Shown here in pieces: positions 3,247 to 12,409 of a stretch of DNA of 40,816 nucleotides (its first letter is position 1; the number at the start of each line of letters is the position of its first letter). Under the pieces are notes generated by a model. The model was not told where the DNA came from and ran no database searches. It was given only the letters and a program-made list of their open reading frames with translations. The position numbers were made by a program, and so were the translations under genes. The DNA is from a virus. Taxonomy: Duplodnaviria > Heunggongvirae > Uroviricota > Caudoviricetes. The stretch lies in the IMG/VR virus record IMGVR_UViG_2563366884_000001, positions 1 through 40,816 of that record; one strand, 5' to 3'.

Positions 3247-3426
3247 TTAGCTTTTTTCGTTGCCTTCGCGTTCTTTATTAATTTTAACAAACTCGTTTTT
3301 ACCACGCTCTCCAAATGCGTCTTTAGAGTCGTTGTATCCGCAATCGCAGCACACATAATCACCAGACCATCCACGCATTGTTTTTTCTTTTGCAATATTT
3401 CCAGAACCGCATTTTGGACAAGACAT
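3247..3426 (-). CDS. Small zinc-ribbon protein (CPKCG ... CCDCG), 59 aa
   Basis: Two CxxC pairs; GGAGGT SD 7 nt upstream of the second Met, so start set at 3426 rather than 3459. Confidence 0.5.
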   Translation of the reverse strand: MSCPKCGSGNIAKEKTMRGWSGDYVCCDCGYNDSKDAFGERGKNEFVKINKEREGNEKS

Positions 3427-3522
3427 ATCACTACCTCCAAAGCATGAGTGAGATGACAACGTAACATTGATTGGAGATTAACAATAGATTGCTGATGTAA
3501 AAGATATGTATAAGCTTCGCTT

Positions 3523-4380
3523 TCAAAGTGGAGGTTCTGGTAGAGGCATCCAGTGTGACGGTTTCCACGACGCACCAGGAATTATCCAACCATCATTAGC
3601 GTCAGGATGCTCCGGGATGTAAGTCGCCCATTTCATTCGCCAGTCACCTTTCCTGTCAAACTCCTTGGCAACAAGAACGGCTGTTTTGGTATCCGGCATT
3701 CGCTCACTACAGCTTATCCACCCCCCCCCCGGAGTTACCGGAGAGTTGCCTGCCAGTCTACGCAAAACAGCCTTAACAGCCTCAATACGGTCATCATCGT
3801 AACTTTCCGCCGTATCTATGCGGTCGAGCATGATGATTGCGTTATCAATATCAGGATTGCCGGTCCACTCATTACCGCGATTGGATTCGGCAGCCTGGTT
3901 GCCGCGTACTGGTTGATTGTCGGCTTTACCCAGTCTGTCGTCGCTGCATGAATGCCCTTCCAGCCAGGCCAATGCTTGTCGCATGAAATACGCAATATGT
4001 TTGCCGTGGTAATCGTCTTCATCGATGTGAAAAGCGATACTACGAATGTATTCAATTGCGTTTTCAATGGCCTCTAACGCTATCGGCGCTGGCGGAGTGG
4101 TGTATAGTTTTCGACATTTGTATATCCAACCGGCATGGTCAGGCGTGTCTGTAAAACGCAAATCGTCTTCGTAGCACTCACGACTACGTTCTTTCCATTC
4201 CGTCCACGGAACACCGCTATTCCAGGTGGGGCGAGTGCAGGACTGATACAGAACAGGCTCTGCTTCCAGCGATGCCAGTGCGATTTCATAAGCACGGCGC
4301 TCAATATCGTCTCGCACGTCCAGGCTGCCGATTCGCTCTTTGATTTCTTTAATCAGTTCTTTGTCGGTAAAAGTGCTCAT
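3523..4380 (-). CDS. Phage protein with C-terminal DUF551-like domain (285 aa); contains a G10 tract
   Basis: AAGGAGAG SD before Met at 4380; C-terminus GGGWISCSERMPDTKTAVLVAKEFDRKGDW resembles DUF551; 10-nt homopolymer at 3721..3730 encodes the GGG. Confidence 0.55.
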   Translation of the reverse strand: MSTFTDKELIKEIKERIGSLDVRDDIERRAYEIALASLEAEPVLYQSCTRPTWNSGVPWTEWKERSRECYEDDLRFTDTPDHAGWIYKCRKLYTTPPAPIALEAIENAIEYIRSIAFHIDEDDYHGKHIAYFMRQALAWLEGHSCSDDRLGKADNQPVRGNQAAESNRGNEWTGNPDIDNAIIMLDRIDTAESYDDDRIEAVKAVLRRLAGNSPVTPGGGWISCSERMPDTKTAVLVAKEFDRKGDWRMKWATYIPEHPDANDGWIIPGASWKPSHWMPLPEPPL

Positions 4381-8577: not shown

Positions 8578-8605
8578 GCCAAAAATAAAGGCCGACTATG
8601 CGGCC
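8578..8605 (-). terminator. Putative rho-independent terminator overlapping the stop of the 207-aa gene
   Basis: Hairpin GGCCG-N6-CGGCC followed on the minus strand by TTTATTTTT. Confidence 0.5.
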
Positions 8606-9219
8606 TCGGAAGGAAGTCCAATCATCTTATTCAAATCTTCTACCCGTAAAGCAGGAAGTGCTGTACTTGCTTTATCTGCTTCTTTTGGTAGCAATTCTTT
8701 GCTTTCAGGCCAAACTTCAATAAGTCGCTTAACTGTTGTGACTGAGTTCAAAGCAGCCCATACATTTGATTCGATATCCTTTTTCTTGGCTTCAAGTTTT
8801 TGTTGCAATGCGCAGATTTCATCAAACCTTTTTGTTATTTCGTGTTCTGCGCTAAACATGCATTTATCTTTGGTCGGAGTAGGGAGCAATATATCTTCGC
8901 CGTTGCCGTCTTTCCCATATGAATGCCATCCAACCCTTCTGCCAGATACAGTCAGATAAATTGAAGTAGAACTAACATCGTATGAGTAAAATGAACATCC
9001 CATCTTTTCAAGTTCTTCACTTATAGCTACCAACTTGGATGATAACTGATCCACTTCCTCAGTTTTCTTTTTACCGCCAAACGCAATAACTCTGGCGTCA
9101 AGTGCAAGCTGGTTCTTTAACTTTGTTACTTCTTCAAGTTCAGTGAAAACCCCAGACTTAATTAAAGCGTTACGAGCGATTTCCTCTTTCATTCTCGTAG
9201 TTAAGCGGATTGATGACAT
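8596..9219 (-). CDS. Hypothetical protein (207 aa) between N and cIII
   Basis: GAGG SD before Met at 9219; no family recognised; occupies the lambda ral/sieB/ssb locus position. Confidence 0.5.
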   Translation of the reverse strand: MSSIRLTTRMKEEIARNALIKSGVFTELEEVTKLKNQLALDARVIAFGGKKKTEEVDQLSSKLVAISEELEKMGCSFYSYDVSSTSIYLTVSGRRVGWHSYGKDGNGEDILLPTPTKDKCMFSAEHEITKRFDEICALQQKLEAKKKDIESNVWAALNSVTTVKRLIEVWPESKELLPKEADKASTALPALRVEDLNKMIGLPSEAA

Positions 9220-9230
9220 ATTAATTCCTC

Positions 9231-9530
9231 TCAAATAAGTGGTTTGCTGCCTAATTTTATTTTCTGGCGACCAACACAAGTCACACCCATTTCACTGCGT
9301 GGCTTGCGGTAGTAAATACGGTTCTGTTTATGCTCGACTTCTTCTGCTTTCTTACAGCGAAGGCTTCCGAGTGATGCTGCTTTATCTGCTCTGACGCAAC
9401 CAGAGAGCTTTAGCGCAATTTTTCGCGCCAGTCGCTGCTCTTGCATTGCCTGTTCACGTTGAGCCTGTCTGCGTGCTCTGCGGCGATTTCTGGCGTTATC
9501 GTCAGCCAGATATGTAATGACTACTGTCAT
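9231..9530 (-). CDS. N: N-like transcription antiterminator (99 aa)
   Basis: Arg-rich N-terminus (DNARNRRRARRQAQREQ); C-terminus GVTCVGRQKIKLGSKPLI resembles lambda N C-terminus GITCSGRQKIKGKSIPLI; GGAGGT SD; first gene downstream of PL/nutL. Confidence 0.8.
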   Translation of the reverse strand: MTVVITYLADDNARNRRRARRQAQREQAMQEQRLARKIALKLSGCVRADKAASLGSLRCKKAEEVEHKQNRIYYRKPRSEMGVTCVGRQKIKLGSKPLI

Positions 9531-9637
9531 GTTGACCTCCGATGATTGACTTTGGCGGTGACGCGCCGGGTGCTTATCTTCCAGTTGCCGTCGTGCAGCT
9601 GCACTTCACGTCACCCCAAAGCCAACTACTCTTTGGT

Positions 9638-9678
9638 TCCCGCATTTCGGCGGGACAATCCCATCAATGTTAAAGAGC
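9638..9678 (-). promoter_or_regulatory. nutL: nutL: boxA GCTCTTTAACA (9678..9668) and boxB hairpin TCCCGC-CGAAAT-GCGGGA (9655..9638)
   Basis: boxA close to the CGCTCTTTA consensus; an identical boxA/boxB pair occurs after cro (nutR). Confidence 0.7.
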
Positions 9679-9699
9679 CTGCCAATCTGTTCCGTTTGG

Positions 9700-9800
9700 C
9701 TACCAGCGTCCTGCTGATGGCTTAAATTTAAGATCTCTTTAATTAATGGTCAAGAGTATTTTTGAAGAAAACTTAAATTTTCTTTCGTAACTTAAGTTTG
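9700..9800 (-). promoter_or_regulatory. PL promoter with OL operators (P22-type half-sites)
   Basis: Minus strand -35 TTGACC (9753..9748), 17-nt spacer, -10 TAAATT (9730..9725); overlapping ATTTAAG/CTTAAAT operator-like half-sites. Confidence 0.6.
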
Positions 9801-9815
9801 GCTTTGATTTTTAAA

Positions 9816-9845
9816 GGAAATAAAAAAAAGGGGCGAATGCCCCCC
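9816..9845 (-). terminator. Rho-independent terminator directly after the repressor gene
   Basis: Minus strand GGGGGGCATTCGCCCC followed by a 9-T run, abutting the c2 stop codon. Confidence 0.6.
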
Positions 9846-10496
9846 TTATGGAAGGTTTGCTAGTTTTGCATCGACAACTACGCCGATGATTTTGCAGTTT
9901 CCGTTGATCTCGATCATCGGATATTGTGGGTTAAGTGGTTTTAGAAACTTCCTGCCTGCATCAATAACTAACTTCTTGAAAGTTGCCTCGTTTTCTCCTT
10001 CGAGCTTTGCAACTACCAGTTTCCCGTTACGCGGCTCTACTTCAGGATCGACGAGTATTATCATTCCTTCAGGGATACTGAGACCGGCCGGAGCCGTCAT
10101 TGAGTCTCCCTTCACGTCCAACCAAAACGAATCTTCTGAACAGTCTACGGTTGTATCGTACCAGTTATCTATTGCACGCTTATGATATGGTTCTACAGCT
10201 TCCATCCAGCATCCTGCGCTCACCCAGCTAATCAGAGGGTATGACCCTCTTGGATCATGCCTACTGTGATAGGCAATGTTTGAAAGACTTTCCTCTCCTT
10301 TCATCAGATAGTCAGGGGAACACTTCAACGCATTAGCCAGGGCGAGAAGATTCTCTCCATTTGGCTCTGTCTCAGAGCGTTCCCACTGAGATATGGCAAC
10401 ATTAGACACGCCGACCATCTTTCCAAGTGCGGCCTGCCTGATCTTGAGTTCTTTTCTCCGAGCGCGAATGCGCTCTCCCATCAATTGAGTTTTCAT
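9846..10496 (-). CDS. c2: Prophage repressor, P22 C2-type (216 aa, LexA-like autopeptidase fold)
   Basis: MKTQLMGERIRARRKELKIRQAALGKMVGVSNVAISQWERSETEPNGENL... and C-terminus ...NGNCKIIGVVVDAKLANLP match P22 C2 along the full length as I recall it. Confidence 0.9.
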   Translation of the reverse strand: MKTQLMGERIRARRKELKIRQAALGKMVGVSNVAISQWERSETEPNGENLLALANALKCSPDYLMKGEESLSNIAYHSRHDPRGSYPLISWVSAGCWMEAVEPYHKRAIDNWYDTTVDCSEDSFWLDVKGDSMTAPAGLSIPEGMIILVDPEVEPRNGKLVVAKLEGENEATFKKLVIDAGRKFLKPLNPQYPMIEINGNCKIIGVVVDAKLANLP

Positions 10497-10576
10497 AGTT
10501 AAGACATCTTAAATAAACTTGACTTAAGATTCCTTTAGTGGATAATTTAAGTGTTCTTTAATTTCGGAGCGAGTCT
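10497..10576. promoter_or_regulatory. OR operators with divergent PR (TTGACT 10520..10525 / GATAAT 10542..10547) and PRM
   Basis: Three P22-type operator-like sites (e.g. ATTTAAGTGTTCTTTAAT at 10546..10563, AGTTAAGACATCTTAAAT at 10497..10514) between the divergent repressor and cro genes. Confidence 0.65.
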
Positions 10577-10762
10577 ATGTACAAGAAAGATGTTATCGAC
10601 CACTTCGGAACCCAGCGTGCTGTAGCTAAAGCGTTAGGCATTAGCGACGCAGCAGTCTCTCAGTGGAAGGAAGTCATCCCAGAGAAAGACGCCTATCGAC
10701 TGGAAGTCGTTACAGCTGGCGCCCTGAAGTATCAAGAAAGCGCTTACCGCAAAGCGGCATAA
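10577..10762 (+). CDS. cro: Cro, P22-type (61 aa)
   Basis: MYKKDVIDHFGTQRAVAKALGISDAAVSQWKEVIPEKDAYRLE... matches P22 Cro as I recall it; divergent from the repressor gene. Confidence 0.85.
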   Translation: MYKKDVIDHFGTQRAVAKALGISDAAVSQWKEVIPEKDAYRLEVVTAGALKYQESAYRKAA

Positions 10763-10769
10763 GCAAATT

Positions 10770-10813
10770 GCTCTTTAACAGTCATGGTCCTCATTCCCGC
10801 CGAAATGCGGGAA
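10770..10813 (+). promoter_or_regulatory. nutR: nutR: boxA GCTCTTTAACA (10770..10780) and boxB hairpin TCCCGC-CGAAAT-GCGGGA (10795..10813)
   Basis: Same boxA and boxB sequences as nutL, placed between cro and cII as in lambda. Confidence 0.7.
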
Positions 10814-10870
10814 TACAACGCGCATAAGTTGATGCGCATAACTTCTTATTTGTTAAGGAAATACTTACAT

Positions 10871-11164
10871 ATGGTTCGTGCAAACAAACGCAACGAGGCT
10901 CTAAGAATCGAGAGTGCGTTGCTTAACAAAATCGCAATGCTTGGAACTGAGAAGACAGCGGAAGCTGTGGGAGTTGATAAGTCGCAGATCAGCAGGTGGA
11001 AGAGGGACTGGATTCCAAAGTTCTCAATGCTGCTTGCTGTTCTTGAATGGGGCGTCGTTGACGACGATATGGCTCGATTGGCACGACAAGTTGCTTCGAT
11101 TCTCACCAATAAAAAACGCCCGGCGGCAACCGAGCGTTCTGATCAAATACAAATGGAATTTTAA
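10871..11164 (+). CDS. cII: CII transcriptional activator, lambda-type (97 aa)
   Basis: MVRANKRNEALRIESALLNKIAMLGTEKTAEAVGVDKSQISRWKRDWIPKFSMLLAVLEWGVVDDDMARLARQVA... is near-identical to lambda CII; start is an internal Met of the annotated 126-aa ORF. Confidence 0.9.
   Translation: MVRANKRNEALRIESALLNKIAMLGTEKTAEAVGVDKSQISRWKRDWIPKFSMLLAVLEWGVVDDDMARLARQVASILTNKKRPAATERSDQIQMEF
11109..11136 (-). terminator. oop-type terminator (to) antisense to the 3' end of cII
   Basis: Minus strand CGCTCGG-TTGCCG-CCGGGCG followed by TTTTTT, matching the 3' end of lambda oop RNA as I recall it. Confidence 0.55.
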
Positions 11165-11186
11165 TAACATCCAACGAGGTAATTAT

Positions 11187-11459
11187 ATGCGAAACAAAGG
11201 CTTTAATCCACCTGATACACACAAAGAAGCTAAGCGTTTGCGCTTCCTTCGTTCCATTGATGAAAGAACTCAAATCTCTTTTGTGAAAGTTGCCAGAACT
11301 GAGCTTCTGAAGGCTGAGGCGAGGGCGTTGCTCCCGTCTCTACCAAAAGAGGAGGGATATACGTTCATTCCAAACGCATTTCTGGAAAAGCTGATCAAAG
11401 AAGACATATCCGTAAGTCAGTTTAACGATGTTCTTAAGGTCTTTCGTCAAGGCAGGTAG
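11187..11459 (+). CDS. Hypothetical protein (90 aa) between cII and the replication initiator
   Basis: GAGGT SD before ATG at 11187; no family recognised. Confidence 0.5.
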   Translation: MRNKGFNPPDTHKEAKRLRFLRSIDERTQISFVKVARTELLKAEARALLPSLPKEEGYTFIPNAFLEKLIKEDISVSQFNDVLKVFRQGR

Positions 11460-11461
11460 TG

Positions 11462-12409
11462 ATGAGCAATACAGCAAAAATCTACGATTTCAGCGCCGCA
11501 CACGAGCGCAGGAGCAACAGGATGGAGAACCAGAAAACTGGTTACATTCCGTTGTACCGGAGCATTCTGAAACAGTCATGGGCGAAAGATGTTTATCTTC
11601 GCACCCTGTGGGAAAACCTTCTCCTGAATGCCGCCAGAAAGCCATACAAAGCGAATTTCAAAGGTCATGAATGGCATCTGCAACCCGGTCAACTGGTTGT
11701 GACAGCAGCTGATTTAGGTCTTCAGTTATGCGACAGGCATGGCAAGCCGGCAAGCCGTGATCAGGTTGAGCGGATGCTTCAGGTTTTTGTGAAAGAGGGG
11801 ATGATCTCCATTGATGGAGAGAAGCAAAAAGGTCGTGTGATCACCATCACAAATTACCATGAATACGCTCAAAAAATGGACAATTCCCCCGCACATGAAG
11901 CCGCACAAACAACCGCACATGATGCCGCACATGATGAAGCCAGTAATGGCGCGGCTTTCAGCGTACATGCCGCACATGAAAGCGCACATGAAGCCGCACA
12001 AACAACCGCACATCATGAACAAGAAGGTATTAACAAGAATATAAATAATACCCCCCTACCCCCCAATGGGGGAGGCGATGGGCAGGTTAAACCTGAACGT
12101 CGCAAGGCAGAACGAATCGACTACGAATCCTTCCTGAACGCCTACAACACCGAAGTCGGTGACAGGCTTCCACACGCTGTTGCGGTCAACGAGAAACGCA
12201 AACGCCGCCTGAAGAAAATCATCCCGCAACTGAAAACGCCAAACGTGGACGGTTTCAGAGCGTATGTCAGGGCGTTTGTGCATCAGGCCAAGCCGTTTTA
12301 CTTCGGAGACAACGACACGGGCTGGACGGCAGATTTTGATTACCTGCTGAGGGAAGATTCGTTAACGGGAGTTCGGGAAGGGAAGTTTGCAGACAGGGGG
12401 ATTGCATGA
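11462..12409 (+). CDS. Replication initiation protein (O-like / P22 gene 18 analogue) with internal origin iterons
   Basis: Position directly upstream of the DnaB-like helicase; contains tandem iterons encoding [10 protein letters not shown]-type peptide repeats; stop overlaps helicase start. Confidence 0.6.
11884..12040. repeat. Putative origin: about six CCGCACATGA iterons followed by an AT-rich tract
   Basis: Repeated (C/G)CGCACATGA(A/T)G units, including two 27-nt copies of CATGAAGCCGCACAAACAACCGCACAT, then ACAAGAAGGTATTAACAAGAATATAAATAATA. Confidence 0.6.

Follow-up and report, generated by a model that had tools for sequence, protein, structure and literature searches.

The question raised by this locus is whether two copies of a boxA-like sequence followed by a short hairpin, found on opposite strands to either side of the immunity genes, are the nutL and nutR sites of an N antitermination system, and whether they are matched to the N protein encoded beside them. 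A preliminary description had reported identical boxA and boxB elements downstream of PL on the minus strand and after cro on the plus strand, and both were found at 9678-9639 and 10770-10811, respectively, of the window, which is the whole 40,816-nucleotide stretch of DNA that was analysed (Table 1). The hairpin pair very probably represents the genuine nutL and nutR of a CUS-3/HK620-like (P22-like) lambdoid E. coli prophage with antitermination of the N type, and comparison suggests that these sites are matched to the RNA-binding end of the prophage's own N protein. Phage CUS-3 (CP000711) is approximately 99% identical to the window.

Table 1. Features of the early regulatory region and their positions in the window (ARM, arginine-rich motif).
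Feature	Position	Strand	Basis or remark
Terminator-like hairpin with T-run (candidate tL1)	8588..8607	-	Lies past N and the gene that follows it; pattern match only
N gene, 99 aa	9231..9530	-	ORF; first gene of the PL operon; small basic protein with N-terminal ARM
ARM codons, residues 11-27 (DNARNRRRARRQAQREQ)	9450..9500	-	Read from the sequence
N leader hairpin, boxB-L to N ribosome-binding site	9535..9640	-	Long hairpin, -42.6 kcal/mol, z = -3.9
nutL boxB (CCCGC-CGAAAT-GCGGG)	9654-9639	-	Equals nutL annotated in HK620
nutL boxA (GCTCTTTAACA)	9668..9678	-	Same as boxA-L of phage 21 and HK620, where annotated as boxA-L or nutL
PL-like early-left promoter (TTGACC-17-TAAATT)	9725..9753	-	Promoter scan
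cI/c2 repressor, P22/phage-21 immunity type	9846..10496	-	HTH_3 and Peptidase_S24 domains
PR-like early-right promoter (TTGACT-16-GATAAT)	10519..10546	+	Promoter scan
cro, P22/phage-21 type	10577..10762	+	P22_Cro, 9e-28
nutR boxA (GCTCTTTAACA)	10770..10780	+	Begins 8 nt past the cro stop codon (10762)
nutR boxB, sequence as in nutL	10796-10811	+	100% identical to nutR annotated in HK620
Second hairpin (GCGCAU-AAGUUG-AUGCGC) with U-rich tail (candidate tR1)	10820..10854	+	Fold; pattern match only
cII, lambda type	10871..11164	+	Phage_CII, 5e-48; 98% identical to lambda cII

Each site consists of the boxA, a spacer (13 nt in nutL and 15 nt in nutR) and a 16-nt boxB, CCCGCCGAAATGCGGG, which is identical at the two places. 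In nutL the stem with its flanking U-A pair occupies 9655-9638 as U-CCCGC-[C-GAAA-U]-GCGGG-A, with the hexaloop CGAAAU at 9649-9644. The nutR hairpin (10793..10814, plus strand) reads AUUCCCGC-[C-GAAA-U]-GCGGGAAU, with the hexaloop at 10801-10806 and a stem that can be extended to 8 bp (ATTCCCGC/GCGGGAAT, 10793-10814). This layout of boxA, short spacer and boxB stem-loop, present once ahead of N and once in the interval from cro to cII, matches that annotated in lambda, P22, phage 21 and HK620. The boxB 16-mer was found in exactly two copies in the window, even with two mismatches allowed, and averaged 0.05 copies in shuffled sequences, with two or more copies in 0 of 100 shuffles. The 11-nt boxA alone was also found twice, which is not improbable given that two or more copies occurred in 20 of 100 shuffles. 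As boxA is statistically unremarkable by itself, the evidence lies in its pairing with boxB and in its position.

The isolated boxB folded into a stem of 5 bp carrying a loop of 6 nt (-7.8 kcal/mol, compared to -7.9 kcal/mol for the lambda boxB), and within the nutR context an 8-bp stem was obtained at -12.5 kcal/mol. A failure of the hairpin to fold stably, raised in the preliminary description as a possible objection, was thus not encountered. A scan of 9000-11500 against Rfam, with E up to 1, returned no match and no boxB or nut family, and as no such family was matched the scan is uninformative either way.

Promoter-like sites were detected at the places expected for PL and PR, so that nutL falls within the early-left leader, ahead of N (9530-9231). 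The segment carrying the PL-like promoter is 93-97% identical to the PL/OL region of phage 21 (annotated in OL657228). The long hairpin in the N leader may have a role comparable to that of the RNase III site in the N leader of lambda, by analogy with which it is interpreted, and in CUS-3 an extra insertion of ~205 bp lies between this hairpin and the ribosome-binding site of N. Two possible terminators were also noted. The U-tailed hairpin following nutR is a candidate for tR1, and HK620 annotates tR1 directly 3' of nutR. The terminator-like hairpin at 8588..8607 is a candidate tL1 which N would have to override.

The N protein is a hybrid, with residues 1-64 of HK620 type (98% identical to HK620 N) and residues from about 34 to 99 of phage-21 type. 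Its identity to phage-21 N is 71% overall, with the DNA of the C-terminal part (9230-9410) being 93-100% identical to that of phage 21. Residues 62-99 align to lambda N (PDB 6GOV chain N, residues 74-110; E = 2e-4), and over the final 37 residues the identity reaches 54%. The lambda-like C-terminus proposed in the preliminary description was therefore borne out, although the wording was imprecise, as the C-terminal two thirds as a whole are those of phage-21 N. The lambda-like RNA-polymerase-binding tail belongs to this phage-21-type part. The protein matches PHROG 271 (N-like) at 4e-36. With the Pfam N_peptide model (PF25694) it scores 20.2 bits, under the gathering cut-off of 27.9; this says little on function as the model reflects the P22-type C-terminus, and bona fide N proteins of phage 21 (22.4) and lambda (16.4) fail it too, with HK620 N (58.4) and P22 gp24 (152) passing.

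The nut/N pair is not new, as the GenBank record of HK620 (AF335538; Clark et al., 2001) labels both sites as putative nut sites (nutL and nutR). The nutL of HK620 is identical from boxA through the spacer to boxB, its nutR is identical through to the cII ATG, and the DNA is 98% identical to the window over 9339-9725. Both features of the HK620 class are present in the window, namely an ARM of the form xNRRRxRR with Arg17 inside a MTVVITYLADDNARNRRRARR N-terminus, and a [C/A]-GNRA-U loop closed by a C-G pair, here CGAAAU at nutL and nutR. HK620 differs in its repressor and cro, in its cII, which is of P22-c1 type, and in the C-terminus of N, which is of P22/H-19B type (…NVAIYAAGYRKSKQLTAR) whereas that of the window is of phage-21/lambda type (…GVTCVGRQKIKLGSKPLI). 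It should be noted that the preliminary description did not recognise the pair as the known HK620/CUS-3 type.

Phage 21 (NMR structure 1NYB; nut sites in OL657228) carries the boxA of the window at both of its sites and has in common with it the module of PL/OL, cI, cro and PR (80-100% DNA identity) as well as the C-terminal two thirds of N. The ARMs are homologous (xAKxRxxARR frame), and the boxBs of both consist of a G/C stem and a hexaloop with a non-Watson-Crick flanking pair. However, phage 21 has Tyr17 (SRYKARR) and the loop C-UAAC-C where the window has Arg17 (NRRRARR) and C-GAAA-U, which separates the window from the phage-21 class (KSRY[KR]ARR with a C-UAAC-C loop), and its boxB stems differ between nutL and nutR whereas those of the window are identical. 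The CUAACC hexaloop of phage 21 is documented to fold in a GNRA-like manner, flanked by a C-C pair, and a GNRA-like fold is common to the boxB of lambda, P22 and phage 21 (PMC12550061).

Lambda, for which N36-boxB structures and the structure of the N antitermination complex (6GOV) serve as references, has the same architecture, with N first in the PL operon, boxA plus boxB at nutL and nutR and a boxB loop of GNRA type, and its ARM shares the RRRxRR cluster. It differs in its boxA (CGCTCTTA instead of GCTCTTTAACA), in an unrelated immunity region and in the two elements that define its class. One is Trp18, which aligns with an Ala in the N of the window. The other is a U-A-closed pentaloop, GAAAA or GAAGA (GCCCUGAAAAAGGGC in nutR and GCCCUGAAGAAGGGC in nutL), in place of which the window has a hexaloop. 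P22 (gp24-boxB, 1A4T) shares an immunity module (c2, cro and operators) that is 92-95% identical at the protein level. Its nutR boxB, ACCGC-C-GACAA-C-GCGGU, is like that of the window in having a GNRA-like loop between flanking unpaired pyrimidines and a CCGC/GCGG stem. Its loop is however a GACAA pentaloop, gp24 gives only a weak, ARM-level match to the N of the window (28% over 65 aa, E = 0.011), and the P22 class combination of [KR][TS]RRHxRRR with that pentaloop is absent from the window. The boxB is thus non-lambda, as had been stated, and is also distinct from the GACAA loops of P22 and the CUAACC loops of phage 21.

The genes around the nut sites show a mosaic arrangement. The repressor shares 92% identity with P22 c2 and 97% with phage-21 cI, and Cro is 95% and 97% identical to its counterparts in P22 and phage 21, respectively. 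The immunity region was described previously as P22-type, which holds, and it is equally of phage-21 type. Homology to P22 and phage 21 stops at 10782-10783, directly after boxA-R, identity to HK620 is 100% over 10770-10873, and DNA homology to lambda covers 10854-11160. The HK620-specific part is confined to 10784-10853, from boxB-R to the ribosome-binding site of cII. Both the mosaic junction at nutR and the lambda-type cII beyond it had been pointed out in the preliminary description and agree with these boundaries. A 126-aa ORF at 10784-11164, which covers the nutR boxB, was considered as the real cII and rejected, as the lambda-identical cII starts at 10871 behind a shared ribosome-binding site.

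In comparison with phage 21 over 9230-10789, identity was mostly 77-100%. The ARM codons (9440-9529) showed the lowest identity of the compared region, at 30-63%. Identity in the two bins covering boxB-L and the spacer (9620-9679) was 50% and 67%, below nearly all of the compared region, and was 40% at boxB-R. This pattern suggests that the ARM, boxB-L and boxB-R travel as one specificity set, which would recombine independently of the intervening immunity genes, the C-terminal module of N and cII. The window, phage 21 and HK620 can be regarded as a clean three-way natural experiment, with the ARM and both boxBs exchanged as a set and the N C-terminus, immunity and cII swapped independently.

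To place this set among its relatives, approximately 250 related loci were surveyed, with counts dereplicated. The phage collection was searched with DNA; tblastn with the 34-aa ARM gave nothing, probably due to the low-complexity filter and the short query. A scan of genome contigs with the ARM alignment gave five loci, with diverged ARMs and loops from Phytobacter, Pantoea and Erwinia, and the nut sites of the diverged loci were read by hand. Both nut sites were present in 75 of 80 IMG/VR loci carrying this N, flanking at least six repressor types, and the segment comprising nutL and the ARM was found in 510 (~9%) of the 5426 complete E. coli genomes. Among the ~250 loci, the NRRRxRR ARM was found only with [C/A]-GNRA-U loops, loops of lambda, P22 or phage-21 type never accompanied an R17-type ARM, and CGAAAU was never seen with an ARM of another class. 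The R17 type, with 32 distinct N-termini, had a [C/A]GNRAU loop (GAAA, GGAA, GAGA or GCAA) in 65 of 68 distinct ARM/boxB combinations. Two of the three exceptions are errors of the hairpin finder (L092 nutR and L227 nutL) and the third, a 1-nt loop insertion in the 1.1-kb contig L193, was taken as an error. A sister N of Y17 type (RY[KR]ARR, the phage-21 type; 10 distinct N-termini) had C-U-N-R-C-[A/C] loops in 20 of 20 combinations, and a third variant, L182, combines an RKYKKTGEFF ARM with AAGGU loops. Residue 17 is the sole position within 11-21 that separates the R17 and Y17 classes. The association of ARM class with loop class was perfect in 42 distinct N-termini, although such co-occurrence counts overstate independence because the sequences are phylogenetically related. 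The co-evolved ARM/boxB specificity suggested in the preliminary description is thus supported by comparison, as the ARM codons are the most diverged part relative to phage 21, the boxBs also fall below nearly all of the compared region, and each ARM class has its own loop class.

Among 23 distinct boxB sequences, both sides of the stem change in 6 of 10 pairs. There were 22 covarying cells compared to 8.6 in shuffles (22 was reached in 0 of 500), and the covariation score was 0.267 compared to 0.163 in shuffles, with every slid register lower. These compensatory changes, which extend across genera, suggest that the boxB hairpin is maintained by selection. The survey also suggests that the HK620-type boxB may correspond to the phage-21 hexaloop recast as a bona fide GNRA tetraloop; the loop variants behind this reading number only four and come from related lineages of Erwinia and Pantoea.

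The proposed mechanism is that transcripts from PL and PR would carry boxA followed by boxB. The boxA RNA, GCUCUUUAACA, which both nut sites of phage 21 and the nutL of HK620 carry in identical form, would be bound by NusB-NusE if lambda is taken as a guide. The N-terminal arginine-rich helix of N (about residues 11-27, DNARNRRRARRQAQREQ) is expected to bind the boxB hairpin, and the phage-21/lambda-type C-terminal part to engage NusA and RNA polymerase. The elongation complex could then read through downstream terminators, for which the candidates are tR1 after nutR and tL after N. The specificity class would be that of HK620, with a G/C-rich stem and a hexaloop read as a GNRA tetraloop (GAAA) on a C.U (or A-U) pair, in parallel to the CUAACC loop of phage 21, which would be a GNRA mimic on a C.C pair.

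An alternative which accepts the nut sites as genuine is that boxB has no separate specificity, its differences being drift inside one functional class in which the N of lambda and/or P22 would be interchangeable with this N. Cocozaki et al. in 2008 are said to have found that the boxB requirements of P22 and lambda overlap, which was counted in favour of this view. The ARM also aligns without gaps to P22 and to lambda (A3, R6, R7, R8, R10 and R11 shared), and the loop variants obey GNRA, with the boxB folds of lambda, P22 and phage 21 all being GNRA-like (PMC12550061). This explanation is nonetheless considered unlikely, since across the ~250 loci ARM and loop classes were never exchanged, the ARM has Ala at the position of lambda Trp18 and faces not a pentaloop but a 6-nt loop whose 3' U is invariant, and the ARM and both boxBs were always replaced together when the N C-terminal or immunity modules were exchanged. 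A literature search found no binding or antitermination experiment with HK620-type N/boxB.

It is far less probable that the hairpins serve another purpose, as terminators, RNase III or Rho entry sites or sites for another protein, and resemble nut sites by position only. Leaders often have hairpins, this N leader has a large one, and a U-tailed hairpin follows boxB-R; however, neither boxB is followed by a T-run or was called as a terminator, the succession of boxA, spacer and hairpin recurs, with an established function, at the corresponding positions of lambda, P22 and phage 21, and the loop sequence tracks the ARM class of N and not the flanking genes. The notion that the duplicated 16-mer is a functionless chance repeat or recombination scar has nothing in its favour beyond the boxA alone being not improbable, and it is effectively refuted by the shuffles, by the retention of both sites in 75 of 80 loci and of the segment in 510 of 5426 E. 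coli genomes, and by the compensatory stem changes across genera.

Genuine nut sites matched to their own N are thus the preferred reading. As the pairing was annotated in HK620 already in 2001 and is present in ~9% of complete E. coli genomes, the feature is an ordinary one, and as a genome feature it adds little, being the early antitermination switch that is standard in a common type of E. coli prophage. The sole new lead is the possible role of residue 17, for which the literature search found no published test. In the N family sharing the MTVV(I/V)T(Y/I)LA… N-terminus, it is tentatively suggested that this one ARM position could act as a natural specificity switch for the boxB hexaloop. 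Arg17 would possibly be paired with C-GNRA-U loops, in which a true GNRA tetraloop is set on C.U or A-U, and Tyr17, just as tentatively, with C-UNRC-C/A loops, in which the UMAC mimic of phage 21 is set on C.C or C.A. The N-boxB pair of lambda has found wide use as a tool for RNA tethering, and further orthogonal ARM/boxB pairs would therefore be of practical use if their specificities were confirmed experimentally. If the suggestion is true, these two classes together with the L182 variant would constitute a small natural set of orthogonal peptide-RNA pairs lying very few residues and nucleotides apart.

Within the window, exactly two copies of the boxB 16-mer were detected when up to two mismatches were allowed (0.05 expected; at least two copies in none of 100 shuffles), each preceded by the same boxA, at nutL on the minus strand and at nutR on the plus strand. 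This confirms the identical elements reported in the preliminary description. The boxA on its own is not improbable, occurring at least twice in 20 of 100 shuffles, and the evidence therefore lies in the pairing of boxA and boxB in canonical positions. The nutR site starts 8 nt past the cro stop codon, and its boxB stem can be extended to 8 bp (10793-10814). On folding, the boxB hairpin was found to be stable, with an energy of -7.8 kcal/mol against -7.9 kcal/mol for lambda boxB, and of -12.5 kcal/mol in the nutR context. A strong terminator-like hairpin was also observed between the end of cI and PL, as the counterpart of the tIMM annotated in HK620 and of a phage 21 terminator annotated at the equivalent position.

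Features and homologous segments of the early region (window positions)
Feature	Position	Strand	Details
PL-like promoter	9753-9725	minus	TTGACC-17-TAAATT; upstream of nutL
nutL boxA	9678-9668	minus	GCTCTTTAACA, read from sequence; 13-nt spacer follows
nutL boxB	9654-9639	minus	CCCGC-CGAAAT-GCGGG
nutR boxA	10770-10780	plus	GCTCTTTAACA; 15-nt spacer follows
nutR boxB	10796-10811	plus	same 16-mer as nutL
N	9530-9231		99 aa, begins MTVVITYLADDNARNRRRARRQAQREQ…
cI	10496-9846		92% identity to P22 c2, 97% to phage 21 cI
cro	10577-10762		95% identity to P22 cro, 97% to phage 21 cro; stop codon at 10762
cII	10871-11164		98% identity to lambda cII
Candidate terminators for N read-through	10820-10854; 8607-8588		second is a terminator-like hairpin following the Nmad5 gene
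Terminator-like hairpin	9826-9847	minus	AAGGGGGGCATTCGCCCCTTTT and T-run
N leader hairpin	9535-9640	minus	boxB-L to N ribosome-binding site
Nmad5 protein gene	8596-9222	minus	directly 3' of N
cII as annotated in CUS-3	10784-11164	plus	126-aa ORF; 3261-3641 in the CUS-3 locus (L001)
Homology to P22	9662-10783
Homology to phage 21	9230-10782
Homology to HK620	9339-9725; 10770-10873		98%; 100%
Homology to lambda	10854-11160
Phage 21, N C-terminal part	9230-9410		93-100% identity
Phage 21, ARM codons	9440-9529		30-63% identity
Phage 21, boxB-L and spacer	9620-9679		50-67% identity
Phage 21, boxA-L and PL	9680-9739		93-97% identity
Phage 21, boxB-R	10790-10819		40% identity

As proposed, the immunity genes are of P22 type and cII is of lambda type. 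Residues 1-64 of the N protein share 98% identity with HK620 N, and from about residue 34 to its C-terminal end the protein is essentially phage 21 N. Its C-terminus had been described as lambda-like, which holds in that the last 37 residues share 54% identity with lambda N and match the lambda N chain in the antitermination complex structure 6GOV (E = 2e-4), but it is properly of phage 21 type. The protein matched PHROG 271 ("anti-termination protein N-like", 4e-36) and scored 20.2 bits with Pfam N_peptide, under the cut-off of 27.9; as this cut-off is also missed by the experimentally studied N proteins of phage 21 and lambda, this shortfall is explained by what the model covers.

The gene following N encodes a protein with a "nucleotide modification associated domain 5" (PF18757, 1e-71) which also matches PHROG 1965 (function unknown), and occupies the position of other early-left accessory genes in lambda, phage 21 and HK620. 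The N leader folds into an extended hairpin with an energy of -42.6 kcal/mol (z = -3.9), which resembles the RNase III site of the lambda N leader. In CUS-3 and in several metagenomic relatives (L001, about 1822-2026; L183, L193, L227), the leader contains an insertion close to its 3' end, immediately ahead of the N ribosome-binding site; these insertions are approximately 205-230 bp long and belong to two or more unrelated kinds; an Rfam scan of the CUS-3 insert gave no match. It should also be noted that the cII CDS of CUS-3 in GenBank begins at an ATG within the nutR spacer and spans the nutR boxB and the tR1 candidate. Since the start of the lambda-identical cII is at 10871, preceded by a conserved ribosome-binding site, the public start looks mis-annotated.

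The alignment to phage 21, with identity taken in 30-nt bins, showed that the specificity determinants, namely the ARM (arginine-rich motif of N), boxB-L and boxB-R, stand out from a background of mostly 77-100%. Divergence was greatest in the ARM codons, and the two boxBs were both replaced. The suggested mosaic junction at nutR was correct, with two junctions in fact present, after boxA-R and at the cII ribosome-binding site. Of 80 IMG/VR loci carrying N of the window type, 75 had nutL as well as nutR, with an unchanged boxB. The repressors enclosed by the pair are of six or more types, among them HK620-type, P22/21-type and lambda cI, and cII 3' of nutR is either lambda-type or P22-c1-type. 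In one locus (L054, about 3250-3400), HK620-type nutL and N lie directly behind a lambda-type PL/OL (TATCTCTGGCGGTGTTGACA), with the boxA variant GCACTTTAACA, and HK620-type nut sites also flank lambda cI in some surveyed loci. Thus six or more immunity types occur in combination with the nut/ARM set.

To compare N proteins with their sites, approximately 250 related loci were gathered from viral, genome and metagenome collections, and the N-terminus and boxA-linked hairpins were extracted for each. Every ARM class was paired with its own boxB loop class: HK620-type (NRRRxRR) with C-GAAA-U, and in Erwinia/Pantoea relatives also A-GGAA-U, A-GAGA-U and C-GCAA-U; phage 21-type (xRY[KR]ARR) with C-U[A/G/U][A/G]C-[C/A]; P22-type with GACAA or C-GACAA-C; and lambda-type with GAAAA and GAAGA. 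Five further classes from IMG/VR (L182, L124/L140/L122, L147-L159, L126/L136/L162, L138/L139) had their own loop at both nutL and nutR: SKSRRMRERG with CGCUU, SRRYLKRGE with CCUU/CCGU, KARELRK with GAUUC/GUUUC, KQRYNAKRA with GAUGC and MTVVITYLAKDNAKNRKYKKTGEFF with AAGGU. After dereplication to distinct N-termini and ARM/boxB combinations, kinship being ignored, 65 of 68 combinations with Arg at N residue 17 (HK620 type, 32 N-termini) and 20 of 20 with Tyr (phage 21 type, 10 N-termini) fitted their loop class; the three exceptions were two mis-called hairpins and, on a contig of 1.1 kb, a loop with 1 nt inserted. Compensatory changes were found at 6 of 10 boxB stem pairs (23 distinct sequences), with 22 both-side-changed cells against 8.6 in shuffles, a value reached by none of 500, and all slid registers scored lower than the true one. 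The comparison supports the proposed co-evolution of ARM and boxB, as the ARM classes track the loop classes and the ARM and boxBs diverge together from phage 21. In the Erwinia/Pantoea relatives (L005, L006, L091, L092, L120, L125, L130-L132, L142), the two sites show a conserved asymmetry: in the boxB stem of nutR, the third pair counted down from the loop is a 1x1 mismatch (C.A or C.C), while nutL of the same phages is fully paired.

All four HK620-class loop variants fit [C/A]-GNRA-U, and they differ only at N, at R and at the base flanking the tetraloop on its 5' side; an A at this last position can pair with the invariant U. The phage 21 CUAACC hexaloop is described, in a passage of PMC12550061 citing Cilley and Williamson (2003), as a GNRA-like (UMAC) fold with a flanking C-C pair. 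By analogy, the HK620-type loop would be a true GNRA tetraloop resting on a C.U pair (A-U in some relatives), and the ARM helix would bind it in the major groove. The window ARM can be aligned gap-free with those of lambda, P22 and phage 21, among which Ala3, Arg6, Arg10 and Arg11 are conserved. In common with lambda it has the RRRxRR cluster, but lambda Trp18 is absent. In the established lambda model, NusB-NusE assembles on boxA, the C-terminal part of N binds NusA and RNA polymerase, and tR1 and tL are read through. By analogy, boxA of the window sites may be bound by NusB-NusE, the C-terminal part of N would contact NusA and RNA polymerase, and the modified complex would read through tR1 and tL.

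The 2.5-kb region is approximately 99% identical to CUS-3 and several further E. coli P22-like phages. The segment with the ARM codons and nutL is present in HK620, HK140, HK630, mEpX2, mEp213, CUS-3, some Stx phages and others, and in 510 of 5426 complete E. coli genomes. The HK620 record (AF335538) annotates sequences identical to those of the window as "nutL; putative N-utilization leftward" and "nutR; putative N-utilization rightward"; a literature search for binding or antitermination experiments on the HK620-type pairing found none. Given this annotation and wide occurrence, the ARM/boxB pairing is a known, widespread type, and the feature is the already annotated, putative nut system of a very common prophage family. 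The nut-site observation is real and its interpretation supported, with two corrections: the N C-terminus is of phage 21 type and the pair of HK620 type. The only new leads are comparative, namely the GNRA-hexaloop reading and the link of Arg17/Tyr17 to loop class, an association which was perfect among the otherwise near-identical N-termini surveyed.
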